Assembly (NCBI GenBank): GCA_963575745.1
Contig: CAUYUJ010000174.1
Coordinates: forward strand, 1 to 64,000
Direction of reading: 5' to 3'
From: Prorocentrum cordatum
Lineage: Eukaryota
Length of the DNA: 64,000 bases
How positions within the stretch are numbered: the first letter of the stretch is position 1; the number at the start of each line of letters is the position of its first letter. Under the pieces are notes generated by a model. It did no database searches and was not told where the DNA came from. It was given only the letters and a program-made list of their open reading frames with translations. A program made the translations under genes and the position numbers. Positions 2,681 to 38,706 of this stretch are shown here, piece after piece.

Positions 2681-4506
2681 TGCCGGCGGGGAGGCCGAGG
2701 CACACGGTGCCGGAGCGGCGTGACAGACCCAGGCGCCGACATTGTTTTTTTTTTTTTTTTTTGCGGTTTTTTTTCCCTGGCCTCCTGGTGTTGGTCCTCG
2801 TTTATTGAATTCGCAGCGCCGCGCGTCTCCTTCTCTCCTCCTCCGCCTCCTCTCCTCCTCTCCTGCCTCCTCCCTCCTAATCCTCTCCTCCTCTCCTCCC
2901 TCCTCCTCTCCTCCTCTCCTCCTCCTCCTCCTCCTCCTCCTCCGCCTCCTACCTCCTCCCCCCTCTCCTCCTCCTCCTCCTCCTCCTCCTCCTCCGCCAC
3001 CTCCTCCCTCCTCCTCCTCTCCTTCTCCTCCTCCTCTCCTCCTTCCTCCTCCCTCTCCCTCCCCTCCCTCCTCCTCCTCCTCCTCCTTCCTCCTCCTCCT
3101 CCTCCCCTCCGCCTCCTCCTCCTCCCTCCTCCTCCTCCTCCTCCCTCCTCCTCCTCCCTCCACCTCCTCATCATCCTATTTCCTCTTCCTATCCCATCCC
3201 AAACCTCCCGTGTGTTGGGCCTTCTCTTTGAATCCGCAGCGCCGCGTCCCACCTCCTCACGTCCTCCCCCTCCTCCATTGGCAACGACCGCACGGTTACC
3301 CGCTCCATTTCGGCACACCCCTCACGCTCTCGTGGCCCCACAGGTGTCTCCGCCGAAGGCCCCAGCTGCAGCGTCCGCATGACTGCCCGCCGGATTTCAG
3401 CACACACCCCGCACACGCGCTTCTGAACCCCAAAGGTCCGCGTGTCCGTGTGCACTGAGCGTTCCTGCCAATACTCGTCACGCGTTTACAGTGGGAGGAG
3501 GAGGAGGAGGAGGAGGAGGAGGAGGAGGAGGAGGAGGAGGAGGAGGAGGAGCAGGAGGAGGAAGAGGAATACGGGCTCTTCGCCTGGACAATTGTTCAAC
3601 CCGCGGCTCCACAGATCCCGACCCCTCCCTCGGGTGCGGCTCCCCGTCCAGGGCCCGCATCTCGGGCGCCCAGATTGACGGCCCTGGGGATCCGAAAGCC
3701 CGAAGCGGCGCCGCAAATTCCGGACAACCGCCCGGACGGAAACAAAGATCAGACATCGTCTGGGGGGAGGCGGGCACAGCGAGGGCCAGGACCAGGGTTA
3801 GGTCGGGGATGTCCCCCTACATGCGGATTCTGACGAAAAATGAACATGGTCAAGAAGTACACCAGCATGGCCAACAAAAACAATCAAAACATGGCCCCCG
3901 TATCATCTTTTGACTACTCTGGAACAGTCCTCCTGTAGAGGGACAGGCCCGACTTACGACCAGGCGAGGGAATGCGGCAGACGTGCACACGGGACGAGAC
4001 CTCGCTGCAAGCACTCGGGGGGAGGCACACTGCCCGGCCGATGCTGCCCCAGAGCCCCAACGGGTGCCGGGTGCCCGGGGTCGCCGGGGAACAAGAAACC
4101 CCCGTGGGGCACCTGCTTGCGAGCGACGCCAGCGCCACCGTCACACTCGCTCCCCCCATATGTTCCTCCGCTCTCCTCCGCCTCGAGTTCCTCCTGCTTC
4201 CCCCTCCCTGCCTGGCTCCCTTCCTCCCTCCCCGCCCTCTTCCCCATCCCCCCCCCCCTCACTCTCAGTACAGGGCGTGCGACAGTGCCGAGGGCCCGAT
4301 GCCACACCCGGCGTGCCCACTGCAGGGAGACGGGAGCCAGGGGCGCGGAGGGCTGGCCCCTCGGGCACCGCGCCCTTGGTCCCCTCCTCTCCCTCTCGGG
4401 CCTCTCAAACAGCCCGCTCCTGTCCCCCCCCCCCTCCTTCTCCTCTTCTCCTCTTCTCCTCTTCTCCTCCTCCTCCTCCTCCTCCTCCTCCTCTTCCTCT
4501 TCCTCG

Positions 4507-4601: not shown

Positions 4602-5249
4602 CGCTACCCCGCCCTCCTCTTGGCGGCGCGCCCCCAGGGGATGTGAGAGGGGTCGGGCCCCCTCAGGGAGGCCCAGACGGCAGCCAGCCTTCTGAGAAGC
4701 CGCCCGAGCAAGAGATCCGACGCTCCGACATCCTCTTCCTCCTCCTCCTCCTCAAAATTGCAGCGGCGGGTTTCTGGCCGTTTTCGGCCTCCAGGGGTCC
4801 TCGCCGGGCCTCGGGACGGTCAACAAAACGACTCGGGACGAACAACTGGCCCTGTTGAAGTGGTCCAGACCTCCGGGGCCCACGGATCCAAAGAATCTGA
4901 GAGGCCGGATGTCTGGAGAGCCTCTTCCGAAGACGCAGGCGGCTTCTCAGAAGGCGCAAGGGCATCTGCAGGACATGTTGGGCACCGCGAGGCTTATCCC
5001 GTTCCTGGGCCTGTCTGATCCTCCCTCCTCCGGACCTCCCCTTGGTCAAGTACGCATTATGCGAGTGTCACCCGCCGCTCTCCCCCGATGCTGCCCAGTG
5101 CTGCCGCCACCTCTCCCGCGTGCTGTTGCACACACAAGACTTCATGGTCTGGACGTTCCCGTCTTTTCTGGTCGGAACGTTGCCGGTCCTTCACACATTG
5201 GGTTCCCTGTGCAGCGTCGTTGGCCACATTTCAGGATCAGGTCGGTGCT

Positions 5250-5860
5250 GTGCCTTAGCGCCGCGCGCACTCCTATTGAACATGTGCAACCTTTTCACGG
5301 ATGGAGGAAGGCCGTTTTCAAAATGTGACTTTCCCCCTAGCGCCGTGCACATTCGTCGGAAAAGTTCGAGACAGTTTCACGGATGGAGGGCGGGCCGTTT
5401 GCAACATGTGACGCTCGCCTTACCGAGGCGCACCTTCGTCTTAAAAGCTTGCTATTACTTTACGGATGGAGGACGCTTATTTTACAACATGTGGCTCCCG
5501 CCTTAGCGCCGCACCCATTCGTCGTGAAAGTTTGCAGCAGTTTCGAATATTCGCATGGTCGAAGTCCTGGGAATTGTGTTCTGGCAAGATCTAGGGTTGT
5601 CAGAACGCAACAGTCATGTTGATTCGCAGTGTTGACGTCCCAAGAATGGTTTTCTGGCAGGGACGCAACAATCACGTTGACTCGTCACGCTGAAATTACA
5701 GGAATGCTGTTTTGGCACGAGTGAAGCTTCTCAGACGCTTGATTTTCAATGGGGCATCTCCCGCTATGACAATAAATCCGTGTAGGGCCCTGTAAAGAGG
5801 GAAATTGGAGGGAGGGTTTATTGTAATTAACATTGCTGATGCGTCTTAGGTTTGCTCTGG
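5250..5860 (+). repeat. Non-autonomous element with a ~82-83 bp internal satellite and a conserved end abutting (CCT)n
   Basis: Unit is approximately ttcacggatggagggcgggccgttttcaaaatgtggctctcgccttagcgccgcgcacattcgt. The end is ggaaacttggaggaagggtg...ctggt(cct)n. Other copies: ~9591-10625 (-), ~11350-11605 (-), ~28950-30370 (+), ~31400-32140 (+), ~40030-40320 (-), ~49490-49920 (-). Confidence 0.7.
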
Positions 5861-12704: not shown

Positions 12705-13659
12705 GAGAACGGGCAGGAGGAGGGGGAGGGAGGAGGAGAATGGGAGAGGATGAGGAGGAGGAGGAGGAGGAGGAAGAGGAGGAGGAGGAGGAGGGCGTCG
12801 GCACGACACTCCAGCCAACAGGCAACAGGAGGAGGAGGAGGAGGAGGAGGAGGAGGAGGTCGCGATGCTGCAGGTCTCGCCCCGCCCCCGCCCCAGCTCA
12901 CAGCCGGGCGCGGGCCAGCCGGCCGTACCGCTTCTTGAGCAGGCAGGACCTGCCGGCAGACGCGCACGGAGCGAGGCCGCGGCCGCGCGGAGGGGCAGAG
13001 AGAGTTTTTGATCCGCGGGTCGAGAGCGCACCTCTTCCGGTCGAGGCTAAGCGGGCCGCGCGACGCTTGAATCAACAAAGAGAGGCAGAGAAAGGTGCCC
13101 GGACCTCCTGCGCATCTCGCCATCGCTCGGACGTCCATTCCAACCACGGTGCAGCTGTTCTGCTGCACGTCGAGGACGGGGCGGCTTCTAAGAGGCCCCC
13201 GCTGCCGTCTCAGACGGGTCCCTCCCCTCGTGCAGCATGCTGGCCGTTGGGCCAACCTCCCCCCAAAAGACTCGTCATCGCTCTGATATCCATTTCCCGT
13301 GCATGTTTCGACTTCGTGCGTTTTTCTTTTTGTCCGCAAGGTGATCCAAGATGTTCCTCGAGGTTCAGCGCCGAGAAAAAATGCACACGTTCGAGCGATG
13401 CCAAAGTATTGACCAACATGCTGAATTGTTTCGCCGACTTTGGCCTCCGGGGTCCCTCACAAGACCACGGGACCGTCATCCGCCACCGTGCCACTGGGCA
13501 CGGAGTGGGCGTGTCCTCAGGCCCTTGGCCCAAGCCTCTGAGCCTCAGTTCTCAGTCCTGAGAAATGTTTCAGGGACCTGGACCCCAATTTCTGAAATCT
13601 CTTGGGGTTTGGCACGTGCCCCCTGCGCTTTCCGGCATCTTGAGGCACGATTTTGTCGG

Positions 13660-18161: not shown

Positions 18162-18169
18162 CCCCCCTC
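18162..18169 (-). promoter_or_regulatory. Polypurine tract
   Basis: Minus strand reads GAGGGGGG immediately before the TGTTAAC start of the 3' LTR. Confidence 0.85.
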
Positions 18170-21019: not shown

Positions 21020-21107
21020 GCCTTCGTTCACGCCCAAGAGTAAGAGGTAATGGGTGGAGAAGGCCTTTAATAGCTGCAGTTTGCTTGACAGAAATGAGCT
21101 GCGAACA

Positions 21108-23198
21108 TCAACATTCGGTAGCTGGCGCAAGCTCATGCCTACCTGTTAATGCACATTGATTCGTGTTTCGTAGATGTGTGCTCATGCTTTCACGACTGAC
21201 ATACTTGGTCAACGCATCCGCTGCATTCTCATGTGTCCCTACTTTCACAATACGAATCACTCCCTCCTTAACTTTCTGCTGTAACCACAATTGACACACC
21301 TCGATATGTCTTACTTTCCCCAAGCCTCGTCTGCTCGCAATGGCAATCGCAGCCGTGGCGTCGCTCTTCACTGTAATCTCAACTTCCAAGTTAAAGTCTC
21401 TTAATACTGCCTGAAGTCCTAAACCCACTGATCCTCCTTTCACAAGTCCATAATACTCTGCTTCACCTGACGATAATGCGATGACACTCTGAGTCGTGCT
21501 CCAAGATTTTATGAGATGTTTACCCCACATTACTACTCCTCCACTCGTAGACTTCCTCGTTCGCTTACATCCTGCGTAATCCGTGTCGGTCCAAATAGTT
21601 AATTCTTGGGGCTGCTCCTGATATTGATACACATAGCTGCTTCTGCTGTGGTACTTCAAATACTTTCCTAACTTGACTAAACCCTTCCAAGAACTCATCG
21701 TTGGCTTTGACATGGTCCTAGCGAGTTCCTTCACATAATACTGTATGTCAGACCTGTCCTGAGCTAAGTAGTTTGCTCTGGCCGTCAACGCTTGATATAT
21801 TTTAGTCATGTTGGGCGAAAGTTCTACCTCATCTCCCTCTTCAACTGGAATTCGCTCACCTGGCACTTCAGTCCTCACTTTTACTCCTTCTAGCTCAAGC
21901 TCTTTCACAATTATCTCTGCATGCCTTTGATCTGCCTCATACCTCAATCCTTCCTTCGTCCATTCCACAATCCTGTTCAGAATTCTGATCGCCTTCATGT
22001 CCTCCTTCCCTGGTCCAAGTCGTCCTCTCACCTTCACTTCAAACTCCTCCTTAATTTTATTTTCAAACCAGTCGAGATCATGATCACCTCCTAACAGCGT
22101 GAAATCATCTCCATGAACTGTTAACCATAACGCTCGACTCTCATGCTTGAACACGCATGGTGACGCAATTCCGCTCTTGAACCCAGCCTCGTTAGCAAAG
22201 TCCATGTAACAGTCTTCCCAGTTGCTCGCAGCGTCTCTGGTTCCGTACATTGATTTTAACAGTTTTCCGCACATGCCTGGTTCATAGTCTTCGTCTGGTA
22301 ACCTGATAAATATGTCTTTCTTTGCTGGAGCGTAAAAGTAAGTTCGTTTGATGTCAACGAATGCTAACTTTAATCCTTTCTCACGCTCACCGTTCGTGAA
22401 TCCAACTCCCTCGGTAACTGCCATTGAGAAAAGCAGTTTTTGTGCCTCCAGTGGAGGTGTAGCTGCGAATATGTTCTTTTCTTTGGAATTGTATTTAACC
22501 TGCTGGGCTACCAGCCTTGATCTGTGGTCTGGGCTTAACTCATCTCCTTTGTTGATGTCTATCCATCTGGTTCCGATGGGCGCCTTCCCCGTGATTTGCC
22601 AACGCACTTCCTCCCTCACTTTCTCGTAAACTTTGTGTTTTCTGAATTGTTCCATTTCTTCTTGACGTGCTTTTACAGTCAATTTAGGGTCGAGCTCGTT
22701 TCCTGTGACATCATCCCAAGCTTGAGTAATCTCTCCATTTTCTCTGTGGACAACGTTGATCGTGTTCATTGGGAGAGGGTTAACTGTACCAGTTCTTTCG
22801 CACGCCGCACATGTGCTAGGCGCCTTGAGCCATCCCTCATGCTCACATGCACAGCACTTCCACCTGTGTGGAGCAATTTCGCCGACAGCTTCATACGTAA
22901 AGGTGGTGGAAGTGTTAACTGGTCCCTTCTTAAACATTCTCCTTCTCTCTTTCCCTGTGATCTCGTTCACAGGCCTGTCCTCGATAATCTTCCCGGTGTC
23001 TATGTCAGCGGTAATTCTCCTAATGCATGAACTCCATTGCGGTCCACTTGGCCCCGGCAGCATTAATCTTTGTGTTCCATAATCTCTCCTCGTCCACGTT
23101 AACTGGTGCTTGTGCTTCCTATCTTCGTTCTCATGTTCACATGCCCAGTTAATCTCGCTTATCTGCGCCTCACTTTGTTGTTCTTCTTCGACTTCCAT
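21108..23198 (-). CDS. pol: copia reverse transcriptase + RNase H
   Basis: RT motifs TRWIDINKG, RSRLVAQ, DIKRTYF, KSMYGTRDA and VHGDDF. RNase H motifs TDTDYAGC, RKSTSGG, SSGEAEYY, SDATAA and ADALTK. Confidence 0.95.
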   Translation of the reverse strand: MEVEEEQQSEAQISEINWACEHENEDRKHKHQLTWTRRDYGTQRLMLPGPSGPQWSSCIRRITADIDTGKIIEDRPVNEITGKERRRMFKKGPVNTSTTFTYEAVGEIAPHRWKCCACEHEGWLKAPSTCAACERTGTVNPLPMNTINVVHRENGEITQAWDDVTGNELDPKLTVKARQEEMEQFRKHKVYEKVREEVRWQITGKAPIGTRWIDINKGDELSPDHRSRLVAQQVKYNSKEKNIFAATPPLEAQKLLFSMAVTEGVGFTNGEREKGLKLAFVDIKRTYFYAPAKKDIFIRLPDEDYEPGMCGKLLKSMYGTRDAASNWEDCYMDFANEAGFKSGIASPCVFKHESRALWLTVHGDDFTLLGGDHDLDWFENKIKEEFEVKVRGRLGPGKEDMKAIRILNRIVEWTKEGLRYEADQRHAEIIVKELELEGVKVRTEVPGERIPVEEGDEVELSPNMTKIYQALTARANYLAQDRSDIQYYVKELARTMSKPTMSSWKGLVKLGKYLKYHSRSSYVYQYQEQPQELTIWTDTDYAGCKRTRKSTSGGVVMWGKHLIKSWSTTQSVIALSSGEAEYYGLVKGGSVGLGLQAVLRDFNLEVEITVKSDATAAIAIASRRGLGKVRHIEVCQLWLQQKVKEGVIRIVKVGTHENAADALTKYVSRESMSTHLRNTNQCALTGRHELAPATEC

Positions 23199-23217
23199 GT
23201 TCGCTACTTCTTCTTCT

Positions 23218-25000
23218 TTATGTACCCCCTTGACGACCGTCGATCTTCATTTGCTTTACAAGTCCTTTCAGTATCGCTCGACACAGTTTATCTGGGTAGA
23301 CCTCTGATCTGTGCGTCCTACCGCCACCAGTTAACTCCATGTGTCGATGTTGCCCTTTACATTTCCAGCTTAACTCATGGCCAATGGCTGAACTGTTTGT
23401 CATGAACTTGGTCGGTTTCTTAATGAACATCTCTTCGCCTTTGACCATCTGCTTTAAGTCGTAACAGCACAAATCTCCATCGTATACTTTGACATCCTTG
23501 TTTCTGAGTAACCGTTGCACCGTTGAAGTGCCCCAGCTGGTTGCTCCTGCAGGGTGCTCAAACAGAAAGTATAACCCATTTCGCCGTTGAATTTCGCAAA
23601 GCTCCATCGCAAACGTCAAATGCTTGATCCCGTAATCCAACATCTGTTTCACACGGTCGGCACCTAATCTTTTAAAGTTGAACGTTTGGAGTCTGCTGAA
23701 GGCTGCGCACATGGGGCTCACCACCAGTAACAGGGCTGCTTTGGATTTGACAATCTTTTTCGCTTTCGCACGCATGGCTGGCACATTAAAATCCCATGGG
23801 TTACCATGTTGGTCTCGCGTCGTTAAGTCCATTGCTAATCCCGGTATCAATCCCATTTTTTCTGCCATTCCAGTAACTCTCACCGGCGAATACGCATCGG
23901 TCACGTGCGCCTGAGTCTCGTGTTGGCATGCCCCATGGAGCCTGGTGGCTCTCCTTACTTCGTTTAATTGACGTACGATGTTCAATTCCCCACTTGTCAA
24001 CCATTCAACCAGTTCAGAGTCAAATCCCATCATGTTGAGCCCCAATCTGATGTCGTTTACTTCTGACATTTCTTCATCTTGTTCCATATCAAGTTGACGA
24101 TGCTGAGTTGCCTGTTGATCTTCTTCGTCGTGGTCGCCCTCTGCTTTTCGTTTAATGGGTTTACTCGGGGAATCTTTCATTTCTTCATCTTCCACTTCGA
24201 ACTCGGTCCATCCGGTCCAGTAACCGTTAAAGGGGTTTCCCATAGCCCATGTTTGATCGTCTCCATCTTCACCATACCAAGCACCTTCGTGCTCATGTAT
24301 CTTGCCGCCGTCAATCATGATCGCGTGGGTATATCTTTTAGGCTTAAGTTTGTCCCAATCTACTGGGCACCCACCATTGGTGGGGAAGGCTAACTCTTTC
24401 CTCGGTCGTCGGTGCTGGCATATAACTTTGTTTCCCTTTATTACCCACTCGTCCTTAGGTTCCTCAACTTTGGCGCTCGGCGGAGGTGGTACATTGATCC
24501 TCAGTTTCTTCGCTTGACTTTCTGATTCTTGTTCGCGATTTTCTGGTGCACGACTTTTACTCTCAAGCCTTAACTGCGCAGACGCTAGCCTTGCCTGGAT
24601 GCTCGGGCTCTCTTGTTTCTTTAACCATTCAATAACTCGAGCCCTGCAATCAGCGTTATGCGGCTTGTGTTCTTTGTCTCCTCTCACGAGGCATTTACAT
24701 CCGTAACACCCTGGTGTCGGTCCCATTTTCAAGTATTCGTGCTTTTTAACTGCAATCCCTCGTGCAATGAGCGGCTTCGTCTCAGGCGCAGTTAAATCTT
24801 GCTCTGGTAGATCCATGGGTACCATGATCCTAGACTGTAATTCCATTCCCGCTGTGCTCGGGTCAGGCTGCCAAGGTAACCCCTTTATTTCGGTGATCTC
24901 GGCAATATTCCATCTTTCCGCATCACTTCCTTTTCTTTTAAACTCGTGCGCCTTGATTGCACCATTGGGCGCCCCAATAATTAGCTCTTCACTTTTCTCG
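23218..25000 (-). CDS. pol middle segment: integrase C-terminus, CxxC-H-C motif, acidic linker and C5 cytosine methyltransferase-like domain (~23250-23907)
   Basis: TPGCYGC...HNADC, then VTDAYSPVRV (motif I-like), LVVSPMC (motif IV-like, PxC instead of PC), FLFEHP (motif VI-like), DLCCYDL...KKPT (motif VIII-like) and YPDKLCRAI (motif X-like). Small indels separate it from the neighbouring ORFs. Confidence 0.75.
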
Positions 25001-25970
25001 TGCCTAGAAACACTCCACTTTCCCATCTCATTGCGAGCTTCTCGCGGCCTTTGTGCGCAGGTGTCTTCAAATACATGACACACTCACCAAACTCAGGAAT
25101 TTGCTTGTTAAACTTTCGCCCCCTGCACCTCTCATGGGCCGTCTTCCCATCCGTGTCTATTGTGAACTTGTTAATCAAAGAGGACGCGCAGCTCACCAGC
25201 CAAGGTATTATCTGATGGCTTTCACCAAACTCAGTCTTATAATTGGCATCTAAGGCGCTCTTTAACGTTCTGACCTGACCCTGCACTGTCCTAACGGCTC
25301 TCTCAATTTCGCCATTGGCCTTTGAGTCGCCGACTGGGCTAACTTCAACTCCCATGTCAAGATCACACGAAGCTTTAATCCTATTAGCCAGTGCTGTGAT
25401 TGCCGCTTCCCCATCACTTTTGAGTATCACCTTCTTGTATCCGGTAAAACTTATCATGTCACATCCTACTTTTACCGAGTACGAGTCCACTCCCTTTTTC
25501 ATCAACACTCTGCTCCAAGTTAATTTGGTCTCTCTGCAATGCATGGCCAAAATTGGATTGCCATTGCTGGTGCTTTCACCTTCATCCTTTCTTCCTTTAA
25601 GCCACATGTAGTCCATTGAAATCACTGGCACGTTTCCGTTCCCCTCTCTTTTGCGTCTACGGTGATTGCGTCTGCGCGCTTTCCCTCTAACGCAATGTGG
25701 GCGCCAGCTTCGGTAAGGCAAATGCGTCGTGTTATGCGCTTCAACTTCCTCCTTTGAGGGCCTCATGTCACAGTAAACTTTCTTTGGTAACTCCGCTTCA
25801 TCACCCGCAAATACATCTTCCACATCACTTAACTCACTATCGTTGCCCCCACTTTCACTTCCTTCGTCTCCTTCGGTATTAAAGACGTTTAAGTTTTCGC
25901 TTGGTCTTACGGGTGATGGGGGGCTTAGTAGAACAGATCCGCCTCCAGGGTTCCCGGCCGCGGAAAACCC
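24981..25970 (-). CDS. pol: integrase
   Basis: HNTTHLPYRSWRPHC (HHCC with one Cys replaced) and a DDE triad in ISMDY, KSDGE and NGEIER. The frame is open back to the slippery site at 25964-25970. Confidence 0.9.
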   Translation of the reverse strand, partial: GFSAAGNPGGGSVLLSPPSPVRPSENLNVFNTEGDEGSESGGNDSELSDVEDVFAGDEAELPKKVYCDMRPSKEEVEAHNTTHLPYRSWRPHCVRGKARRRNHRRRKREGNGNVPVISMDYMWLKGRKDEGESTSNGNPILAMHCRETKLTWSRVLMKKGVDSYSVKVGCDMISFTGYKKVILKSDGEAAITALANRIKASCDLDMGVEVSPVGDSKANGEIERAVRTVQGQVRTLKSALDANYKTEFGESHQIIPWLVSCASSLINKFTIDTDGKTAHERCRGRKFNKQIPEFGECVMYLKTPAHKGREKLAMRWESGVFLGTRKVKS

Positions 25971-28534
25971 TCAGTAACGTTCACTTCGCTCCTGGGATTG
26001 ACGGCCTCCGCTGGTCCCTTCGGTACTGTGATGTTGAACTGGAATGTGCCATTCTTCTCATGAATGGTTGTGAACTTACCGGTCGCCTTGTTCATGATGT
26101 GGCTCAGGGATCTCCCGTTAGAACCCTTGTCGAACACCACTCTATTTCCAGCGTTTACCATCTCTCTGACAGATCCTAGGACTTTGTTGACCTCTGCTAC
26201 CTGAATCGGCATACTGACGGCGCTCCCATGCTCATTTTTACCTGTGATCACTCGTTGACCATAATTCTTTATCGTGGTTCCATTTGCTGCACTGTAGTGT
26301 CGTCCCTGCTTTGACGCGCCCGTATGCTTAATAGGGAAATGAGTGCCAACTTTGGGGGGCCCCACTGTGTTGTATGCGCCGGAGTCCACGGTAACCACGA
26401 TCGTCTCATGCGTTGCACTTGGCGGTGGCACCGCGTTAATCTCTGGATCACAGCCCCGCATCTCAATTAGCCCAATTTCCTTGCACTTCTCCAGCCAACT
26501 TTTTTCCTGCCTCACGCTTTTACTTATTCTCTGGTCCCATTGACTAGTATGATTACAGTCCCCGTTACGCTGGTGTTCCTGATAAATTCTTTTCAAATTC
26601 ACCGCGTTGTTACGTGCCGTTTTCTTTCTGGCGTAATAGGGCAGGTCCCATTTCTCGTTAACCTCCTCGATTGCAGGCTGGTCTAGCGGCACGTTCATTG
26701 CTTCCTTCATCTCAACGCTGAGAACATGCTGTGGTTGGCCGAACGAGGTGGTTTGTTCAATCTCAGTGTTCACTGCAGGTTTCTCTTGCTCAACTTCGTT
26801 GGCGGTCTTCTTAGGGCCCGGACAGTTAATGGCGATATGCCCTTTTCCGCCACACTTGTAACACTCACGCTCGCTGTGCGGGGTGAACTTCCCTTGGCCT
26901 CCGTAGCTTCCTCCCCACGAGCTACTTCCTTTACCTCCCTGTTTGCCTCCGATCTTACCTTTCACATAGGATCCGTAAGTGGCTCGGTAACCTTTGCCTT
27001 TTCCGCCCTTGCCACCTTTACCTCCTTTGGTGAACTGTTTAGGTCTTGTGCAGTTTCTGGCTAAATGGCCCATGCCTCCACAATTGTAACACCTGGGGCC
27101 CGCTCCTTTACCTTTGCCTTTGTTTACGGCGTCAATTTCTTCATATTCTCCACCGTCGCTCTCATTGGCCCAGGACCCGTAATTCCACGATCCGTCTTCT
27201 GACCACCAGTTTCCATCTTCGTCAACCCATCCTGTTTGGTCCCAAACATTTTCGGACCCTTGACTCATCTCGTTGATATTCCCAATGTCCATTGCATCCT
27301 TATTTTTCGTATCTGAGTCAAGTTTCTTTTTACGCGCCCAGTCTTCGCACTTTGAGTACAATTTCTGAAATGAGTCAATGTTAAGCGCGTCAGGCGTTCG
27401 CCAACATGCCTGCTGCCATTCGTCGAACCAGTCATTCGCGTGCACCATTATGGCCCTGAGCGCGGTGACTTTAAAAGGAAGAGGCAGCGAGTAATCTTTA
27501 CCATATTTCTCAAGATTTTCTGCCAATGCGCTCCATTCCTCAAGTCGGGTAACGGTGTCAGTGATCTTCTTGGGCGGCTCAGGATTCATGGCATGCGTCA
27601 TTTTTGATGATAAGGTCGCTCCGGTTACCGCCGAGTACCATTTGTAAACCTTTTGCCAAGCCATGATTCCATCTCCATCCATCAGTCCCTTTAATTTTCC
27701 TCTGGCCTCCGCACCTTCAAGTTTCTCGTTCAGAATGTACCATAAGTCTTCCTCCATCTGAGTTTTGTCTCCCTCGGTGAACTCATATTCGCCTTTGTTG
27801 TCGTCCTCGGCCTGTTTGGCTTGATTCGCCTTCAGGTACTCACTTGCAGTTAATCGGCCGTTCATTATGCGTATGATGTCGTCATCGTCCTCCTCTGGTA
27901 CGACTCCGTCAAGCGTCTCCAGCTTCTTGTTTAGCATTTTCAGTGCCGGTCGGTAACTCGGCTTCACTTGGGCTAGTGCGTTCAAGAACTTGTCGTTCCA
28001 GTCTCTGAACTTTGCTCTTTCCCCACTGAAGTTCTTTAGCGCCTGTAATGCTTTATATTCGCTTATCGGTTTACTGCTCCCGTGCTTGCTTCCGCTTCCT
28101 CCTTTAATCGCTTCCGAGATCTGACCAAACCTTTCGATCAACTTTTCTTGTACTTCACTGTTGGTCTCCAACTCGGTGACTCTTTCCACCAATCTGCGAG
28201 CATCCCTTTCGAGTGCAGCGTTTCTCTTTGTGATCGCTAACAGCATGCTGTTGGTCTTGTGGGCACTCTGTAACATTTGGAACGCTTCGGCATTCGATAC
28301 CTCCCTTCGATCCTGTGTTACTCGCTCGTTAATGAACGTTGCGAGTCCGAAATGGTTCGCGAGTAGCGCCGTCTGAACGTAACTGAAGTCTCCGCTCATG
28401 TATGCTTGCTCGCACAGATCGTTGAAGCGATTCGGGTCCATGTTGACCCATGCATCTCTGTCTGCCGGCACATTGAGATTAACTGGCGGGTCGCCCTGCC
28501 CAGGTCTGGCCGCAGCTGCCGCTGCCGCTGCCAT
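25925..28534 (-). CDS. Gag-protease polyprotein (869 aa)
   Basis: Two CCHC knuckles (CYNCGGMGHLARNC and CYKCGGKGHIAINC) and the aspartic protease motif VTVDSGA. The ATG lies just downstream of the PBS. Confidence 0.93.
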   Translation of the reverse strand: MAAAAAAAARPGQGDPPVNLNVPADRDAWVNMDPNRFNDLCEQAYMSGDFSYVQTALLANHFGLATFINERVTQDRREVSNAEAFQMLQSAHKTNSMLLAITKRNAALERDARRLVERVTELETNSEVQEKLIERFGQISEAIKGGSGSKHGSSKPISEYKALQALKNFSGERAKFRDWNDKFLNALAQVKPSYRPALKMLNKKLETLDGVVPEEDDDDIIRIMNGRLTASEYLKANQAKQAEDDNKGEYEFTEGDKTQMEEDLWYILNEKLEGAEARGKLKGLMDGDGIMAWQKVYKWYSAVTGATLSSKMTHAMNPEPPKKITDTVTRLEEWSALAENLEKYGKDYSLPLPFKVTALRAIMVHANDWFDEWQQACWRTPDALNIDSFQKLYSKCEDWARKKKLDSDTKNKDAMDIGNINEMSQGSENVWDQTGWVDEDGNWWSEDGSWNYGSWANESDGGEYEEIDAVNKGKGKGAGPRCYNCGGMGHLARNCTRPKQFTKGGKGGKGGKGKGYRATYGSYVKGKIGGKQGGKGSSSWGGSYGGQGKFTPHSERECYKCGGKGHIAINCPGPKKTANEVEQEKPAVNTEIEQTTSFGQPQHVLSVEMKEAMNVPLDQPAIEEVNEKWDLPYYARKKTARNNAVNLKRIYQEHQRNGDCNHTSQWDQRISKSVRQEKSWLEKCKEIGLIEMRGCDPEINAVPPPSATHETIVVTVDSGAYNTVGPPKVGTHFPIKHTGASKQGRHYSAANGTTIKNYGQRVITGKNEHGSAVSMPIQVAEVNKVLGSVREMVNAGNRVVFDKGSNGRSLSHIMNKATGKFTTIHEKNGTFQFNITVPKGPAEAVNPRSEVNVTEGFPRPGTLEADLFY

Positions 28535-28537: not shown

Positions 28538-28555
28538 AACCGCGCTCCGCTACCA
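28538..28555 (-). promoter_or_regulatory. Primer binding site, probably tRNA-iMet
   Basis: TGGTAGCGGAGCGCGGTT directly follows the CA of the 5' LTR. TGGTAGC is the complement of an initiator-Met-type 3' end. Confidence 0.8.
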
Positions 28556-28730
28556 TGCAAAACCCCGAGGAGGGTTCTGCACGGGAGCCTGGCAACAATG
28601 ATAACGATAGGTCACCTTTATACTCCCGAACGGCAAAGCAGGTCTATGTAGCTTCGACCGTTAAACACTTGAGCCAAAGGCAGCAGGGTTACTATTCCTC
28701 CCCTGTCACACGCACGCTTGCATGTTAACA
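28556..28730 (-). repeat. 5' LTR (175 bp)
   Basis: Direct repeat of 17987-18161. Confidence 0.95.
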
Positions 28731-29097
28731 CCTCCTCCTCCTCCTCCTCCTCCTCCTCCTCCTCCTCCTCCTCCTCCTCCTCCTCCTCCTCCCATCTCCT
28801 CCTCCTCCTCCTCTTCCTACTCGATGCGTTCGTCTTTAAGCAGAGCCCTCCTCGAGTTACTTGTGGTAGAAGTACCTCCTTCCTGCTTCACCCCCAGACA
28901 TGTTGGTAGGGCGGGCTGGGCGCTTCTCCTGAGACTTATTCACCGCTTATGATCCTGTGAATGTTACAACAGCTTCACGGACCGAGATCGGGTCATTCTC
29001 AAAAATGTGGCTCTCGCCTTAGCGCCGCGCACGCTCGTATTAGAAAATGAACCAAACGCGACCCCGATCAGGGTTAAGCTTGCCATTCCATGGGCGC

Positions 29098-29285
29098 AGT
29101 GCTTGGCATTGCTTAGCGATGCTTGAGATTGCTTGGCGTTGCCAGGCATTGCTTGGCACTGCTTGGCGTTGCTTGGCACTGCTTGGCATTGCTTGACATT
29201 GCTTGAAATTGCTTTGCATTGCTTGGCATTGCCTGGCATTGCTTCGCATTGCTTGGCATGCTTTCCATTTCTTGGCATTGCTAAG
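29098..29285. repeat. Short-period tandem repeat (GCATTGCTTG-like)
   Basis: Repeated ttggcattgc and ttggcactgc units. Confidence 0.85.
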
Positions 29286-32200
29286 ACTACGAAGCATCGG
29301 GGGCGGGGAACCCGAGTAACCCGGGGAATCCGAGGAACCTGAGGAACCATCAGAAACTAGGCAACGTATCAATAGGAAGCACCTGGGGCGGGAAACCCAA
29401 AGAACTCAGGGAACCCGAGGAACCTCCGGGAAACGGGCAACGTAGCAATAGGAGGCACCTGGGGCGGGGAACCCGAGGAACCCGAGGAACCTCCGAGCAA
29501 CGGGCAAAATAATAATAGAAGTAACCAACCCTTCATCAAGTAAGAAGTCCTTAGGCAAGCCTAGTTGGGACATTACAAAGGCTTCACGGATTGAGGGCGG
29601 GCCGTTTTCAAAATGTGGCTCTCGCCTTAGCGCCCCGCATTGTAAACATCTGCAAGAGTTTCACATATTTAGGGCGGTTCGTTTTCGAATTGTGGCTTTC
29701 GTCCAAGCGCCGCACACCCTCGTTTTTTTTTTGACTTGACAAGAGCTTCACGGATGGAGTGCCATTCCTGTTCAAAGTGCGGCTCTCGCCGTAGCGCCGC
29801 GCACAATCGTCCTAAACGCCTGCATGAATTTCATGGATGGAAAGCGGCTCGCTTTCAAGATGCGGTTATCGGCTAGGTACCGCGCGCATTCGCCTTAAAG
29901 GTCTGGTTTCAAAGCTGGAGGCCAGGCCGGCTTTTACAGGTGGTTCTCGCCCCAGCGCCGTGCAGTCTTTCGGCAACATGTCACGAGAGGTTCACAGATG
30001 GACGGCGGGTCGTTTTCAAAATGTGGCTCTTGCCCCAGCGCCGTGCACAGTCGTCTTCAAACTATCGCAACTGTTTCAAGGATTCGTAGGGGTAAAGTCC
30101 CAGACGCAACAGTAGTGTTGACTCGCGGTGCTAAAGTCCGAGGAGCGGTGTTCTGGCACGGTTTAGGGTTGTCAGGACGCAAGAGTCACGTCGACCCGCT
30201 GCGCTGAAGTCTCAAGAATGGGGTCTTGGCACGGCTGAGGTTGCTCATACGGTTGTCTTCCAATGGGGCACTTCCCGCAATGACGAACATCTTGTATGGG
30301 CCTATGAAGGGGAAACTTGGAGGAAGGGTGTACTGCAATTTCGTTGATGAATCTTGAGTTTACACTGGTTATCCTCCTACTCGCCCTCCTTCCTCTTCCA
30401 CTGCTGCCCCCTCCCTCCTTCTCTCCCAACACCTCCACTTCCACCTCCGCCTCGTCCTCCTCCTTCTCCTGACCCTCCTCCTCTTCCTACTCCGTCTCCT
30501 CATTCCTCCTCCATTTCTTCCTCCTCCTCCTCCTCCTCCTCCTCCTCCATCCTCCCCCTCCTCCTCCTCCTCCTCCTCGTCCTCCTCCTCCTCCTCCTCC
30601 TCCTCCTCCTCCCTCCTCCTCCTCCTCCTCCTCCATTTCTTTCCTCCTCCTCCTCCTCCTCCTCCTCCTTCTCCTCGGGGCGGGGCCACGGCCGAACAAG
30701 AAAACACCCGAGCAGGAGCCCGGAAGGCCAAGGCGGACAGCCCTGGTGGACGCCCACGGCGACGCCCTGGGCTGCCAGAGCAGCCCGGGGCGCTCGGGGA
30801 GGAGGACAACGACCAGGACCACGGCGCACATGGCAGGCAGATCTCTGAATCCACGAACTGGGTGCGGAAGCTTGAGGGCAGGAGGGACGGACAAAGGGGG
30901 GCTGGGGGGGGGGCGGGGAGGGGCGGTCGTAGCGTCGTGGTGGTGGCGGTCGTCGTGGGGGTGGTCGTGGAAGCATTGGTGGTGACCACGTCCTCCTCCT
31001 CCCTCCATCCCCCCCTCCCTTCCCTCCTCCTCCTCCTCCTTCTCCTCCTTCTCCTCTTCCTCCTCCTCTGCTGCGTTCTCCTCCTTCTCCTCCCTCCCCT
31101 CCTCCCTCCTCCCTCCTCCCTCCTCCCTCTTCCTCCTCCTACCCCTCTTCCTCCTCCTCCTCCTTCTCCTCCTCTCGTCGGGGGGGAGAAGGCGTCCCAA
31201 GCCAGCACGCCAGCGGCACCTCCTCCTCCTCCTCCTCTTCTTCTACTTCTTCTTCTTCCTCCTCCTCTCCTCCTCGTCCTCCTCCTCCTCCTCCACCATT
31301 CAATTTTCCGTGTGAATAACTCCTCCCTGTCGCGCCCCGAGGCCAGTCGGAAGGGCGGCCGGGCGTGTCGCCTGAGACTTCCTTTCGACGCATGAGCCCC
31401 AAGCTGAACAACTTGCAACAGCTTCACAGATGGAGGGCGGGTCGTTTTCAACATGTGGCCCTAGCCTTAGGGCCGCGCACATTCGGTTTAAAACTTTGCA
31501 AGAGCTTCATGGATTGCGGGTGGGTGGCTTTCAAAATGTGGTTTCGCCTTTTCGCCGCGCACATTCTTGTTAGAAATCCTTCAGAGCTTCACGAAGTGAG
31601 GGTGGGTGGTTTACGAAATGTGGTTTTCGCCTTTTCGCCGCGCACATTCGCTTTACAAGTCCTTCAGAGCTTCACGTATGGAGGGTGGGTGATTTACGAA
31701 ATGTGGTTCTCGCCTTGCCGCCGAGCACATGCTTTTAGAAATCCTTCAGAGCTTCACGGATTGAGGGTGGGTGGTTTACGACATGTGGCTCTCACCTTAA
31801 CGCCGCTCATATTCGTTGTACAACTTTGCAACAATTTCAAGGCTGCTCGTGATTTACGTACCAGAAGTGGCGTGTTTGAGCGATTCAGGATTGACAGAGC
31901 GCAACAGTACTGCTAATTCACTGTGTTCGAATCCCACACGTGATTTTCTGGCACGATTCAGGATCGTCCAGACGCATCAGTTAAGTTGACTCTTGGTGTT
32001 GAAATTCGGAAAATGATGTTTTGGTGCGCGTCAGGATTTTCAAACGGCTGTCCCCCAACGCTGTAGGTGCCTATGAAAAAAAGGAACTTGGAGGAAGGGT
32101 GTATCCCAACATCGTTGATGAGTCGTGAATTTGCTCTGGTCCTCCTCCTCCTCCTCCTCCTCCTCCTCTCCTACTCCTCCTCCCTCCTCCCTCCTCCCCT

Positions 32201-32837: not shown

Positions 32838-35800
32838 CTATGGAGGGCTTAGTGCCTCCTCTCCCTGGGTCTTGGCACGCTCCTCGCGCACCAACTGGGC
32901 CAGGGGAATAGCGGGGGTCTTAAAAACGATCGGGGACGACTTTGTGCCCTTGGGATCTCGACCCTCCTGGACGCGGGCTAGCTGAGTGGCCGCTCCTTGG
33001 TGGCTCACTCTAGTGCTGCACGCACTAGCGAGCCCTCGACCCAACCCTTCAGAGAAGGATCCACACTTATGGCAAACCAAGATACTCGTCGGGTGATCAA
33101 GGTGCTCGTAGTAAAACAAATCGTGGCCTTTATTATCATGCACAAGATCGGAGAGCTGCTTACAGTGGCCTGGGCAATGCTGGGCCTGTAAGACTCCCCG
33201 CTGTTTGAAAGACTTGGTCTGCACTCTACACAGGATGCACCTGTGGTACTGGTGAATGAGAGCCCATGTGTGGTACCTGAAGGGCTCTCTGGGCTCCTCT
33301 TGGGGCACAGGCGGAGGCGGAGGGGGGGGGGGGCTCGACCGACGACGGCGGCGTCCACGACGAAAGGGCAGAGGCGGCACCCGTGGGGGGAGAAAAACTC
33401 TTCTCTGGGGCGGCCAAAACTTTGTTGCGGTGGGGGGCGATCGCGGGCCACTCTCCCAGAGCCTGCGCAACATACTTCAAATATCGCACGATAAACTTCC
33501 GACTGTCAGTGAAATCACTTTTCTCTGCTTCACTGGGCTGCATTCCTTTAAAAGCGGCTGCCTTGGCAATGCGGTCAGCAGTGCTATTACCTTCGGCCAA
33601 CCTTCTCTCTTCACTGCCTTCTGAGAGGGCCTGCAAGTCTTGGTGGGCCTTGACCTTGCGCAGGCGTTGGCCGAGGGGGAACTAGCTCCTGCCAGCCAAG
33701 ACCTTACACCCAGCCCATACGTTGTGCCGAGGGTACTCAGACCCTTGGTGCAGGGACAAAACTCGTTTATAATCAGAGTAAATGACTTCCACATCCCTAG
33801 AAAGAATACTGGCCGCAACAGCGGCCAAATGCTCCGCGGCACCCGAGGTTTGTAAAAACATCTGGCCGACTCGGCCACTGAAATGGGCAAAAGCTTCACC
33901 GTTACGCATACAGACAACCGCGAAACCTGCGGCGTTGAAAACATAGTGACCGTGGTTAGTGCAACTACCATCTATATACACCTCCCCTTCGCTGAAAGCC
34001 TCCTGCGGGGTGATCCCCTCCTGAGCACACCAAAACTCCCCAAACTCCAGGCCCGAACCAGGAGGATTCTCTCCACGATACTCGGGAACCAGCTGGAAAC
34101 CGAGATACTGGGGCAGGGTCTGGGGAGGAGGCTCTCTTAAATTCTGAAGCTCCGCTGCCGAGAAGTGAGTGGTTCTGAGATTCTCTGTCTTCGGGCAGTA
34201 AAGTATGCGGTGGCCGAGGTTGTCCGAATGGTGGCCGCACTCGCAGCCAGTCTCGACTTCATATCCTGCTGCCTTGGCTCTGTCCATAGTCCATATACTC
34301 TGGGTGAGGAAGGCGAGGAGGGTTCCCTTCTGGTGGCCAAGGAGGTCTGGCGATGACAGAGCAGCACGGGCAGCAACCACATCTAACTGGGCGTTCGGGT
34401 GGCCGATCTTCTCGGCCGCCTTGGAAGCGAGCTGGCCGTGCCAGTCGAACTCCATGAGCTTTTGGAGGAGGGCGGGGGAATGTCCTGGGAGAGGGTACTC
34501 AATGCCTGAGGAGGTCACAAAAGTAAATGGTCCCTGGAATTTCCAACCGATCCTTTTAAGCGAAAGCACCGCAGCGCTTAGGGGGCCCCTGGAGGAGCCC
34601 CAAGATTTAACAACTCTCGGGAGGATGGCCTACACGTAACTGCTGGAGGCTGGTCACGGCGAGGTGGGGGCGGGTGGCGGCGTCCCAAACAAGGCGATGC
34701 CACATAATGGCGGGGCCCAGGGCAGCTTTCCACAAGGGGTCCTTGAGGATGAGCAGAGCCAAACTGCGGCTGCGCGTCGGGCAACGGGGTCCCGCAGCAA
34801 AAACTGCGACCTAGCTGATTCCAACTGCGTGCCATTGATGCCAGTCACCTCGACTCCGAACGTGGTGGCCGCCTCGAGGCCAGTCCCATACAACTTATGA
34901 GTGTTACCCCCTGCTCTCTTGAGCATGCGAACCCTGTTAAGTCTTTTACGCATCTTATCAAGACGCTCCGAAATCTTACGCTGCTTTCTCCAGCGTCGTT
35001 GGGGCCGTCCAGCCCCAGTTTCACAACCCAGGTTAGGTCCAGACCTATCCGAGTTCGGGCCCGCCAGAGGCCCGAGGGCCGTCCTGAGTTGATCCTGAAG
35101 GGCTTGCTGGGACGCCAGGACCTGACTTTTCTTGCTGGCGATCTGGCACTTAAACTCATTGATGATGCAGTCTGCCATGGACCTGGCAGCAATATTGAGC
35201 TGGCTGGCGATGAGGCTGCAACTGCGGCCGTGGCACTGGAGCAGCAGATCATCTATAAACATCGCGAGCCTGATATGACAATGCGCCTGCGTCCACACGT
35301 CGAGCGGGGCGAGCACATACATTTGCACAATATAGGTGGCCCAACTGCATCCTGCGGCTATGCCCCTCCAAGGCTTGCCTACGCTGACTGCACAATCTTG
35401 TAGTGCAACTATGCGTTCACTGGCATATTGAGATAGTATGATACGCAATAAACAGCACGGAAAACCTGATTCAACAGCACGATAAGCAAGACAAGGCCGA
35501 TCAACATGTTCGTAGTAGTTAGATAAATCGTAGAGAACTTGGGCACTATATTGTTGATCTTTGTCAGAGCTGTTGAACTCGCATTCCAAGGATTGTTTGT
35601 ATACTAATTCCACTATGGAGTGACCAGCCTGATGAGCAAGATACGGCCTGCGGTGGTGTGCCTCCCACTCTCTGGCCGCTGACCTCCTGAGCCTAGCCCA
35701 GACTCTGTACAAAGCTGGAAGCATGCCAATGGACCTGAAAGAGGGCTGGCTGGCTGGGGCATCATGCTGTTTCAACTTCATCATCAGAGTCGATACGATG

Positions 35801-37555
35801 CCTTGGAGCTGGGTTGGCATATGTCCAATCTTTTCCAGCAGGCCAATAAAATCGCAGACAATCTCTGCCTGTTCGTTACTCAACATACTGAAATGCCTAG
35901 GGTGGAACCCGTCCCAGGTAGTGGCAGTGGCATGGGGAAAACTTTTCGCAACCTGTCGTAATCTCTTGGGGCTGATGGGGCCCAGGGCAATTCGATCTTC
36001 TCTGTCAGGAACGAGCTGAGGTGGGGTATCCTGGGAAACCTGCCATATTTTTGCCAGACGATCTGCTTCAGCCTGCAATATATGCTGGGGCCTGCCAGAA
36101 TACTGCGACTTAAATGGAACTGACGAGGGCCTCCAGGCCTCCAAACGCTTGGTCCATCTGTGAGCCCATCCCATTCCTCCCTTCATGTTGTCCTGAACCC
36201 AATCCCTCCATGCCTTCCCGTCTGCAGCGTTCTCTGCCGCCTGCTCCTGATGCAGGAGCTTGGTGACGTGCTCTAGCAGCTCGTCCAGAACCTGGATCGC
36301 CAGCGCCTGGTTCAGGGCACCAGCGCTGAACTCAACGCGCAACAGACCTGCAGCAACTCTAATCTCTTGCAGCCCCTCCTTGAGGGACACGACGGTGGTG
36401 AACAGCTCAGGGCAATCCTCTAAGCTGTCGAGAGCGTCCTGAAACTCAGTGAGATTCCAGTCCTGAACACATCTATGGAAATCTTGGATCCTATTGATGA
36501 GCCATCTCAACGGGCCCGTGTAGGCCACCCATTTGGCCCTACTCCTAGCAGCCTTGGCCTCAGCGAGGACCATAAGAACCTGAGGGGGGGGTGGGCCCTG
36601 GGGTACTTGCTAGGCTTGAGGGGGGTGTTAGTTTTCTTACTGATTGTAGCTTCCAAGTCCTGGGCCAAGCTGAAATACACGTGGTCCAGGAGCACCGACT
36701 GCTGTTGATCGCTGAGCGGCCGTCGAGCATCATCGATCAATAGTGAAGCGTACTCCAATGCAGCAGCTGACTGGTGCCAACTCACTTCTGGCAATTGCGG
36801 GCCCACAGGGATACGTGTGGGTAGCTTCTGGGGCCTATGCAGCGTGGGGATATTAAAGTTATTCCCAACTACAATATCTAGCAGCACAGGTCTGTGAGGG
36901 GAGAGAGGATACGAGGAAAGAGTACGGGGGTTACTGAGCCACGGCGAGAGGCCTTGGCTAGACAGGAAATAATCTAGCGTGGATTTGGTCTTCTTGTTTC
37001 GGTAGGTGGCGGTCGGCGGCGCAAGCAGGGTCATCGTGGACCTGGACAGAAACTCCGCTTGGGCCAACCTAGCGGGGGCTAGGTTAAAATCCCCCGCAAC
37101 CAAAACTGGATGGGTCAAATCATCCTGAAGTTGGCCTATGGCGGCCAGCAGTTTTAAATTGGTCTCGGAGAGACCAGCAGCAGCCTGAAAGTAGGTACAA
37201 CATATGGCGAACTTCGGGGCCCCAGGAAGTTCGAGCAACACCCCCGATAATCGAGCGGGGTCGAAAGCGGCAGAAAAAGTGATTGGCTGGACCCCCAGGT
37301 CCAAGCCATCCCGAATCAAAATCGCAACTCCCGAAACCAACTCATTATTCTCACTCGTGGCTGCAGGCGTGATGTAAGCCAGCCACCCCTGGGCCGAGCA
37401 CCATTGTATCTGACGCACAATGCGATCTCCTTCGGCAGGCTTACGCTCCTGAGCACAGATGATCGTGACTGCACTAGACTGCGGCGAAAGGACAAACTTG
37501 CGCACAGCAGGCCAGCAGGAACCATTGATAGTAGCGGTCTTATAAGTGTTACCCT
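32838..37555 (-). pseudogene. LINE A ORF2, split over several frames
   Basis: APE ~36600-37550, RT 34654-36573, linker and RNase H ~33480-34569, and C-terminal Cys/His region 32838-33300. Confidence 0.85.
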
Positions 37556-38706
37556 GGCGGCTTCTGGCCCTGGGTGGCCGCGAGAGACGCAGCCTCGGCT
37601 GCCGCCTTGACCCTCTTGGTCTCGGGGCCTGACTCACTCTGGATCTTGGCCATGCCCTGGGCGACCTCGGACAGCGCAGCAGCCGCACGGCGGCGGCCTT
37701 CAGACGTATCCATGGCCTGCTCCTCTGCCATGGACTCCAGCTCCTTGTCGTCGGCGGGAGTGGGGACGTGCTGGCCTGGGATGGGCACGGGCGTCTGACT
37801 TGCCTGGCCGACATCAGGGCTCTCTCCAACTGCAGGGAAGCCGTCGATGACCCCGCGCTGGGCCGCCTCCGCAGGCGGGCCGCCACCTGCTGGTGCGCCC
37901 GAGGCCTGGGATGCGACATGTTGCTGCTGCAAGGTGTCGAACATGGCGGCCAGCTCCGATACTTTATCTCGTAGTTCAGGTGGGGCCAGCCCTCCTTGTG
38001 GCATTCTGGCGGATATAACTCCTTGAATGGTGGTGAGCAAATCTTCAGCGTTGGATGCCTCGTATGCAGCCGCCTGGGTGGCCGCATTGAGCTGTGTCTC
38101 CAGCGTTTGCACTTCTTTTGAATTAGCTTCGATCTCCTCGACCAGCTTGCCGTCATATTCACTTGCCTCGACAATAGTAGTGACCAGCTCGCTGGCCTCC
38201 TGCTTCTGCGACTGCAACCTCTGGCGCAGCACCTGGAGTTGATCTGACAGGGATTGTGCTTGCTGCTCCAGGCTCTTGGCTGATAGCGCCTGCGCCTTGG
38301 CGAACTTGAGCTTGCCCAGCGCCGCCCTGTGCTCCTCTCCATCTGGCTTCCACTTTTTCCAGAAGGTGACTTGAGCTTGGGCCAGGGCGACTGGGTCGTC
38401 AGCGGGAACTGCATCCTCGAAGGTGACCACTCGGCCGCCTCCGCGCCCCAGGCCTGGTGGGCGCTCTGGACCGCGGGAGCCTTTCCTCCAGCGTCCTGGC
38501 TTGGCGGACTCCTCCTCGACGTCAGGCCGAACATCCTGGGGGCCACCTCCACCGCCTTGGGGTCTAGCTGGGGGACCATGATCCCCGCCCTGCTTGAAAC
38601 GGCTGCCACACTGCATGCAATGACGAGAATTCGTCGCGCACCAAGCCCAGCCCTTGCAACCTCGCTTCGAGCAGACCATGTACTTCTTCTGCTGCTGGGC
38701 GGGCAT
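37549..38706 (-). CDS. LINE A ORF1 (N-terminal Cys zinc finger + coiled coil)
   Basis: MPAQQQKKYMVCSKRGCKGWAW...HCMQCGSRF followed by a long Q/E/A/L heptad region. The frame is intact. Confidence 0.8.
   Translation of the reverse strand: MPAQQQKKYMVCSKRGCKGWAWCATNSRHCMQCGSRFKQGGDHGPPARPQGGGGGPQDVRPDVEEESAKPGRWRKGSRGPERPPGLGRGGGRVVTFEDAVPADDPVALAQAQVTFWKKWKPDGEEHRAALGKLKFAKAQALSAKSLEQQAQSLSDQLQVLRQRLQSQKQEASELVTTIVEASEYDGKLVEEIEANSKEVQTLETQLNAATQAAAYEASNAEDLLTTIQGVISARMPQGGLAPPELRDKVSELAAMFDTLQQQHVASQASGAPAGGGPPAEAAQRGVIDGFPAVGESPDVGQASQTPVPIPGQHVPTPADDKELESMAEEQAMDTSEGRRRAAAALSEVAQGMAKIQSESGPETKRVKAAAEAASLAATQGQKPPG

Follow-up and report, generated by a model that had tools for sequence, protein, structure and literature searches.

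A spliced-leader block in both long terminal repeats of a dinoflagellate copia-type retrotransposon as the possible trans-spliced start of its terminal RNA repeat

We analysed a stretch of 64,000 nucleotides (nt) of the dinoflagellate Prorocentrum cordatum (GenBank assembly GCA_963575745.1, contig CAUYUJ010000174.1, positions 1 to 64,000; hereafter the window), whose minus strand holds a copia-type retrotransposon with a piece of the dinoflagellate spliced leader (DinoSL) in each of its long terminal repeats (LTRs). A direct repeat of 180 nt at 98% identity resolves into two 175-nt LTRs (TGTTAAC...TTTTGCA) that differ at 2 positions, the 5' LTR at 28556–28730 and the 3' LTR at 17987–18161, both on the minus strand, with the borders of the 5' LTR set by its TG..CA ends, by the primer-binding site (PBS) on one side and by a microsatellite flank on the other. 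The minus strand carries ACCCTGCTGCCTTTGGCTCAAG at 28689–28668 and again at 18120–18099, and the terminal 11 letters of this 22-mer, TTTGGCTCAAG, are those of positions 12–22 of DinoSL, which reads DCCGTAGCCATTTTGGCTCAAG and is 22 nt long (PMC7245778). The block so defined occupies 28668–28678 (minus), that is, positions 53–63 of the 5' LTR, and recurs as an exact match at 18099–18109 (minus) in the 3' LTR; in our proposal its last two letters, AG, would serve as trans-splice acceptor and mark the 5' edge of the terminal RNA repeat R. The original prediction, that a leader-like sequence is built into both LTRs and is identical to DinoSL over its last 11 nt, was confirmed at both coordinates.

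Exact matches to TTTGGCTCAAG number two in the window, one per LTR and both on the sense (minus) strand, against an expectation of 0.01 per window, and none of 100 dinucleotide-preserving shuffles contained two; because the two are copies of one LTR, they count as one event. Matches to the 11-mer with one mismatch are not above chance in the window. The prediction had called the whole 22-mer leader-like, and this stood for the last 11 letters but not for the rest: the upstream half, ACCCTGCTGCC (28679–28689, minus), a variable, U3-like part that is not kept in relatives, agrees with the first half of the leader at 4 of 11 ungapped positions (counted by eye), which is chance level, and the whole 22-letter leader has no match in the window at up to 3 mismatches. 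The feature is therefore a block of 11 letters, or of 12 when the next T is included (TTTGGCTCAAGT), and not a copy of the 22-letter leader. Two further candidates were set aside. A gapped alignment of ACCCTGCTGCC to the 5' half of the leader can be forced, and it is neither beyond chance nor present in relatives; an internal TGGCTCAAG (the last 9 leader letters) at 22824–22832 is coding (EGWLKAP), is absent from the related locus L017 introduced below, and has a chance expectation of 1.02 per window.

The element that carries the block shows the features of the Ty1/copia type, namely a copia-type reverse transcriptase (RT; PF07727 RVT_2, E 5.2e-13, 49.6 bits against a cut-off of 31.6), direct LTRs with TG...CA ends, and zf-CCHC in gag. 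Adjoining the 5' LTR is a PBS predicted by position, TGGTAGCGGAGCGCGG (28540–28555, minus), past which the gag ATG (28534) stands 21 nt on from the LTR, and directly ahead of the 3' LTR is a polypurine tract, likewise predicted by position, GAGGGGGG (18162–18169, minus). The gag-protease open reading frame (ORF; 25925–28534, minus, 869 amino acids) has two CCHC knuckles (PF00098, E 1.6e-11) and a VDSGA protease motif recognised by eye. It is followed by a pol region at 21108–25970 (minus) in three overlapping frames (24981–25970, 23218–25083 and 21108–23246), of which the last encodes the RT. The PBS would pair with the 3' end of a transfer RNA (tRNA); a search of the window for tRNA genes found none. 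In the four related loci described next (L016–L019), TGGTAGCGGAGCG holds the place of the PBS, and G-runs hold the place of the polypurine tract in L016, L018, L019 and the 3' end of L017. The PBS core TGGTAGCGGAGC is common to the window element, these relatives and three of four published SmTCL records of Symbiodinium microadriaticum (supplementary files 7, 8 and 10 of PMC5776459); that of SmTCL3 differs (TGGTTATCAGCC).

Relatives were fetched from metagenome contigs by gag alignment of database relatives and not by the motif, and this gag search yielded the four loci L016–L019. Each of the four has TTTGGCTCAAGT in its LTR, 70–80 nt upstream of the same PBS, and the partly captured 3' LTR of L017 carries it too. 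Across the five LTRs (window plus four relatives), TTTGGCTCAAGT is the sole common word of at least 7 letters, the next longest being the LTR end TTTGCA, and sets of shuffled LTRs sharing any 7-mer at all came to 0 in 2000. Within L016–L019, searched on both strands, all five occurrences of TGGCTCAAG are the sense-strand LTR block. The gag identity of the window element to the four relatives is 52–55% (81–86% among the four themselves), and LTR identity outside the block, window against relatives, is 32–59%. The gag alignment found no relatives in viral contigs, nor did an RT query of the viral contigs find any, and prokaryote genome contigs yielded none; matches to the PBS pattern in viral contigs amounted to 15 loci, all of them in GC-rich or phage-like coding regions that are unrelated and lack the block.

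A second genus is represented by four author-annotated S. microadriaticum copia records in the supplement of Chen et al. (files 7–10 of PMC5776459), inspected in part and with a text search to which motifs that straddle the 10-letter groups of the file format are invisible. Three of the four records carry the block, as TGGCTCAAG or as the full 11-mer, in the annotated LTR. SmTCL3 (file 9, 5' LTR 3866..4044) has the exact 11-mer at 3979–3989, followed by CACTGCGTAAAAAC; in file 8 both LTRs (5169..5286 and 12892..13009) contain cgacgaTGGCTCAAGcatgcacagcaaaagg, which TGGTAGCGGAGC follows; and file 10 has gcgtgTGGCTCAAGgtgcc inside the LTR, with TGGTAGCGGAGCC at 2031. The block is not described in that paper, as its main text has no mention of 'spliced leader', 'DinoSL' or 'trans-splic'. 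The original prediction had named a lack of conservation or enrichment in related LTRs as evidence against it, and the outcome is in its favour: the block is invariant and conserved in position in 4 of 4 relatives, and three of the four published LTRs of Symbiodinium copia elements carry it. These data also speak to the thought that the block is a neutral fossil, a decaying remnant of a leader-bearing RNA that was copied once, or else an accidental match. An 11-mer match is not rare in itself when a large number of windows is scanned (0.01 per window), and the upstream half is already unrecognisable; yet 12 of 12 letters are unchanged despite the gag and LTR divergence just given, the block sits at the same place in the Symbiodinium elements, and the TGGCTCAAG copies of L016–L019 all fall on the sense strand and in the LTR. 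We consider a fossil or chance origin highly improbable.

The likeness to the leader has exact edges. On the right all eight LTRs (window, four relatives, three Symbiodinium) have the same limit, the final base of the leader; the base that follows is T in the window and the four relatives, C in two Symbiodinium records and G in one, and the letters after the AG of the block are TGT or TAT in the window and relatives. The intron of the spliced-leader RNA (SL-RNA) starts with GTACAC (PMC12584245), and a GTACAC continuation occurs after the block in none of the eight. This right edge, at the leader's last base and without GTACAC, therefore indicates spliced RNA as the source and not an SL-RNA gene. 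Had the LTR instead captured a fragment of an SL-RNA gene, perhaps to act as a leader donor, one would look for continuations such as that of supplementary file 10, in which GT follows the AG as it does in SL-RNA genes; against this, 7 of 8 LTRs have no GT next, 0 of 8 have the GTACAC of PMC12584245, and no full 22-nt exon is found in the window at up to 3 mismatches. Such a capture is scarcely credible.

On the left, the likeness always begins within the T-run of the leader, with three T in six LTRs and one T in two, so that it starts at leader position 12 or 14. The left edge of the window block, TTTG, is also where retention steps up among relic leaders in Symbiodinium (Song et al. 2017, PMC5585692). 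This shared boundary is what a core-promoter explanation would build on, by which TTT(T/G) in a relic leader is the equivalent of a TATA box, a role put forward for retrogenes, and transcription starts ~25–30 nt downstream: relic leaders keep TTTT or TTTG, with the retention step at TTTG and the same left boundary as the block (PMC5585692), and TTTG is kept in the window, the four relatives and SmTCL3. However, two Symbiodinium LTRs with TGGCTCAAG have GATGG and TGTGG in place of TTTGG, and because they keep TGGCTCAAG without TTTG, what the LTRs have in common is not the promoter motif. Nor does a motif of 4 letters explain the invariance of the next 8; the block lies 116–144 nt ahead of the gag ATG (134–144 nt in the window), outside the −50 to −100 zone of PMC5585692; and R would shrink to ~10–25 nt. 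We judge this explanation to be quite improbable. Each LTR has a single copy of the block, and tandem relic leaders were found neither in the window nor in the LTRs of the relatives.

The block divides each LTR into an upstream part of 52–146 nt, which is variable and does not align between lineages, and a downstream part of 70–112 nt, which is more constant and aligns in places. Exactly one A(3-6)[GC] run is present in the tail of each of the five LTRs, 33–48 nt past the block; in the window copy it is an AAAG run 48 nt past the block (28616–28619, minus; 18047–18050 in the 3' LTR), which we take as a candidate poly(A) site and R/U5 boundary. In dinoflagellate genes AAAAG/C is found at the exact poly(A) site (PMC2488372), and the Symbiodinium LTRs have AAAAAC and AAAAGG 9–11 nt past the block. 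Single-sequence minimum-free-energy folds show a GC-rich hairpin in the interval that separates block and A-run and, in L016, L017 and L019, a further hairpin whose 3' arm reaches the first T's of the block; no consensus structure from block to A-run emerged from the MAFFT alignment, which is not structure-aware. We infer from this layout that the order of the LTR is U3, block, R hairpin, A-run, U5 and then PBS. The suggestion that the motif may mark the U3/R boundary fits such an anatomy, with its variable upstream part, its constant downstream part and its one poly(A)-type run.

The same anatomy could suit a leader mimic encoded in cis, by which an LTR promoter starts transcription at or near the block, the RNA begins with the 3' half of the leader and is not trans-spliced, and selection keeps this half for something that it does in host messages, such as translation, export or protein binding. 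The block does lie at the expected meeting point of U3 and R, where ordinary LTR elements start transcription; a host gene whose genomic copy is leader-like exactly where the splice site lies could yield a leader-bearing message without trans-splicing (PMC2488372); and the heat induction reported for the SmTCL elements (PMC5776459) fits LTR-borne control. A cis mimic is nonetheless unlikely in our estimate, given that the cap-adjacent 5' half of the leader is missing, that leader positions 12–22 have no known function by themselves, that the upstream part is as short as 52–69 nt with no shared promoter-like word found there, and that a cis mimic gives no reason for the likeness to end exactly at the splice junction.

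The window contains a second retroelement with leader letters, a long interspersed nuclear element (LINE) at 33600–38910 on the minus strand, recognised by its Exo_endo_phos and RVT_1 ORFs. At its 5' end, abutting a (CCT)n repeat, is TGGCTCAAG (38901–38909, minus), the last 9 letters of the leader, so that the end reads (CCT)n-cTGGCTCAAG-ACCTGAG with the left edge inside the T-run, as in the LTR block. Read from its DNA copy, this 5' end is evidence that the leader is carried by retroelement RNAs in this organism. As with the copia LTR block, the DNA records the leader at the position of the RNA 5' end and the likeness starts in the T-run. The LINE has its leader once, at the extreme 5' end, where no homology is needed, whereas in the LTR element the leader piece must be at both RNA ends to survive strand transfer.

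From the presence, strand, position, cross-lineage invariance and exact edges of the block we derive a replication cycle whose steps (use of the acceptor, the boundaries of R, the point of transfer and the renewal of the block) would run as follows. In the reading that we favour, and to which we give about an even chance, the genomic RNA of the element is trans-spliced at the AG of the block, the block forms the 5' end of R, and it is copied anew from a fresh leader in each cycle. The leader piece would have entered the LTR by reverse transcription of trans-spliced element RNA and would now be part of replication. The element would be transcribed from some start, possibly by read-through from host gene arrays, since the part upstream of the block is only 52–146 nt. 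All dinoflagellate nuclear messenger RNAs (mRNAs) are thought to receive the leader (PMC2606063, PMC5585692), and the host would add DinoSL by trans-splicing at the terminal AG of the block, which would give a mature genomic RNA made up of the leader and then T(G/A)T...; for the window copy this would be the 22-nt leader joined to the T at 28667, that is, the leader plus TGTTTAACGG. Poly(A) would be added at the A-run 33–48 nt beyond the block in the 3' LTR. The last 9–11 leader letters at the RNA's 5' end would then equal the block in the 3' LTR, and R would comprise the block and the next 35–50 nt; for the two shortest cases, both from Symbiodinium, nearly half of an R of ~25 nt would be block. 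Minus-strand strong-stop DNA would copy into the leader and transfer to the 3' copy through the homology of the block, probably during a pause in the leader's U-run, which would also account for the left edge shared with the LINE. With each cycle the new LTRs would receive a freshly copied block.

Several strands of the argument hang together in this cycle. If the element RNA is trans-spliced, strong-stop DNA ends in the complement of the leader and the 3' LTR must offer a matching sequence; because the first jump needs such a match at the 3' end, the footprint to be expected is a piece of leader where U3 and R join in both LTRs. Host trans-splice acceptors have no consensus past the AG (PMC2488372), and therefore use as an acceptor would not by itself fix 9–11 letters; for the letters to be fixed, pairing with leader-derived complementary DNA or re-copying from a fresh leader would be needed. 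That no tandem relics are found argues for the block's own AG as the acceptor, and this is also favoured by the lack of any other AG within 24–39 nt upstream of it in the five LTRs. The original prediction had offered an acceptor AG and a homology for strand transfer as alternatives; we keep both, not as alternatives but as what seem better taken as two halves of one model.

A number of points weigh against such a cycle. No transcript was seen, the only RNA run giving one contig with an 18–25 nt low-complexity gag match, while the other sequencing runs consist of DNA contigs (two runs) or 3 short contigs (one run). The metagenome relatives form one clade (81–86% in gag), and the deep comparisons are accordingly few: the window lineage, this clade and the three Symbiodinium elements. 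The record in file 7 (LTR 3430..3677) has the same PBS and no clear block, only the degenerate TTTCGGACCACAG. The assignment of the poly(A) site depends on a short motif. Full-length strong-stop DNA, with its 22 leader letters, would leave the last 11–13 unpaired with the 3' LTR, and the model has to assume that transfer precedes the end of the leader; homology over all 22 letters would seem the better arrangement for the element, and it is not found. More tentatively, as a possibility that we hold to be less likely than not, we extend the favoured reading to the copia elements of dinoflagellates at large: the 5' end of their RNA would be set by host spliced-leader trans-splicing at an LTR acceptor on read-through transcripts, the last 9–11 letters of the leader would lie in R, and that part of the LTR would be rewritten from the host in each round. 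If this is true, LTR retroelements would have a way of replicating in which a splice junction, and not a transcription start, delimits R.

Turning to the remaining features of the element, pol of L017, in which RVT_2 was found as well, is a single ORF of 1614 amino acids against the three frames of the window copy; because the relative has one ORF, we read the window pol as broken by two frame changes, and the window copy is probably defective despite its near-identical LTRs. No Pfam match to integrase was obtained at E ≤10 in the window ORFs, the putative integrase ORF among them, nor at ≤0.01 in the L017 pol, and the presumed order integrase before RT is taken from ORF position. The middle ORF (23218–25083, 621 amino acids) has no Pfam match at E ≤10, and a PDB sequence search returned only chance-level similarity (E 0.33); the idea that it holds a cytosine methyltransferase is unsupported by these searches, and PMC5890265 describes Symbiodinium Copia elements as being without DNA methyltransferase (DNMT) domains. 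Beyond pol lies a third ORF (18569–21145, minus, 858 amino acids) that matches no Pfam family. An ORF of 885 amino acids stands at the same post-pol position in L017 (7479–10136), and L018 (1–620) is without it, running from the end of RNase H through ~240 nt into the polypurine tract and LTR. In L016 (1–62), L018 (1–622) and L019 (1–33) the polypurine tract is followed by one LTR and then directly by the PBS and gag, which could be assembly collapse, tandem copies with an LTR in common, or circles with one LTR. In two organisms the family occurs in high copy number, with 1209 and 2009 DNA contigs at 90–100% identity in two sequencing runs.

The surroundings of the element are repetitive. On both sides it is flanked by a (GGA)n microsatellite, given in the sense strand (window 17750–17986 and 28731–28830), L017 likewise has (GGA)n ahead of the element (1–39), and the window LINE lies in the same kind of repeat, which suggests that (GGA)n-type microsatellites are preferred for insertion or favour survival. 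A target duplication of 5 base pairs is ambiguous between GGAGG and GAAGG. Beyond the 5' LTR are a 10-nt tandem array (GCATTGCTTG-like) of at least 12 copies at 29086–29275 and an array of ~83-nt units in two blocks at 29580–31810. The window also includes 100 N, presumably an assembly gap.

The RNA of LTR elements and retroviruses has to carry one sequence at its two ends alike, a rule that a foreign 5' leader breaks unless the element adapts. Such an adaptation is what the leader piece fixed at the U3/R junction of copia LTRs, seen in at least two dinoflagellate genera, looks like. In the open-access literature searched we found no statement of a leader piece inside copia LTRs, and this variant in the design of LTR retrotransposons seems to have gone unreported. 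It offers a concrete, testable link between trans-splicing and retrotransposition and bears on which elements produce the many leader-tagged retrogenes of dinoflagellates. In practice, the block, a short R, the A-run and the PBS TGGTAGCGGAGC provide a marker for annotating abundant short-LTR elements, and searches for relic leaders upstream of genes will also catch copia LTRs.

In retroviruses and Ty1 the jump of minus-strand strong-stop DNA to the 3' end is made possible by the terminal RNA repeat R, which contains a hairpin, and R/U5 is marked by the poly(A) site. R in those elements has a transcription start as its 5' edge, whereas here that edge is proposed to be a trans-splice junction, with R partly supplied by the host. 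Retroposed dinoflagellate genes carry relic DinoSL, the product of 'mRNA recycling' (Slamovits and Keeling 2008, as described in PMC3229502 and PMC7245778); classic relics are 15 nt long, are cut at the leader's internal AG, often follow a more recent leader in tandem and decay as they grow older (PMC3229502). The LTR block resembles them as a DNA-encoded piece of leader, in sense orientation and ending at the leader's last base, that would stem from reverse-transcribed trans-spliced RNA. It differs in that a classic relic occurs once, at the 5' end of the retrocopy, and decays, whereas the LTR block extends for 9–11 nt from the T-run, is single, is present in both LTRs and is invariant at 12 of 12 letters across elements at 52–55% gag identity. 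With the promoter reading of Song et al. 2017 (PMC5585692) it shares the TTTG left edge and the idea of a relic leader retained for function, and it departs from that reading in its conserved core, which is TGGCTCAAG and not TTTG, and in its distance from the ATG. SmTCL1–4 are a further near parallel: they stem from a different genus, the sequence that follows the block is not the same and two of them have a block of 9 nt, but they too are Ty1/copia-like with short LTRs (118–254 nt as annotated), and three of the four share the PBS core and three of the four the leader block.
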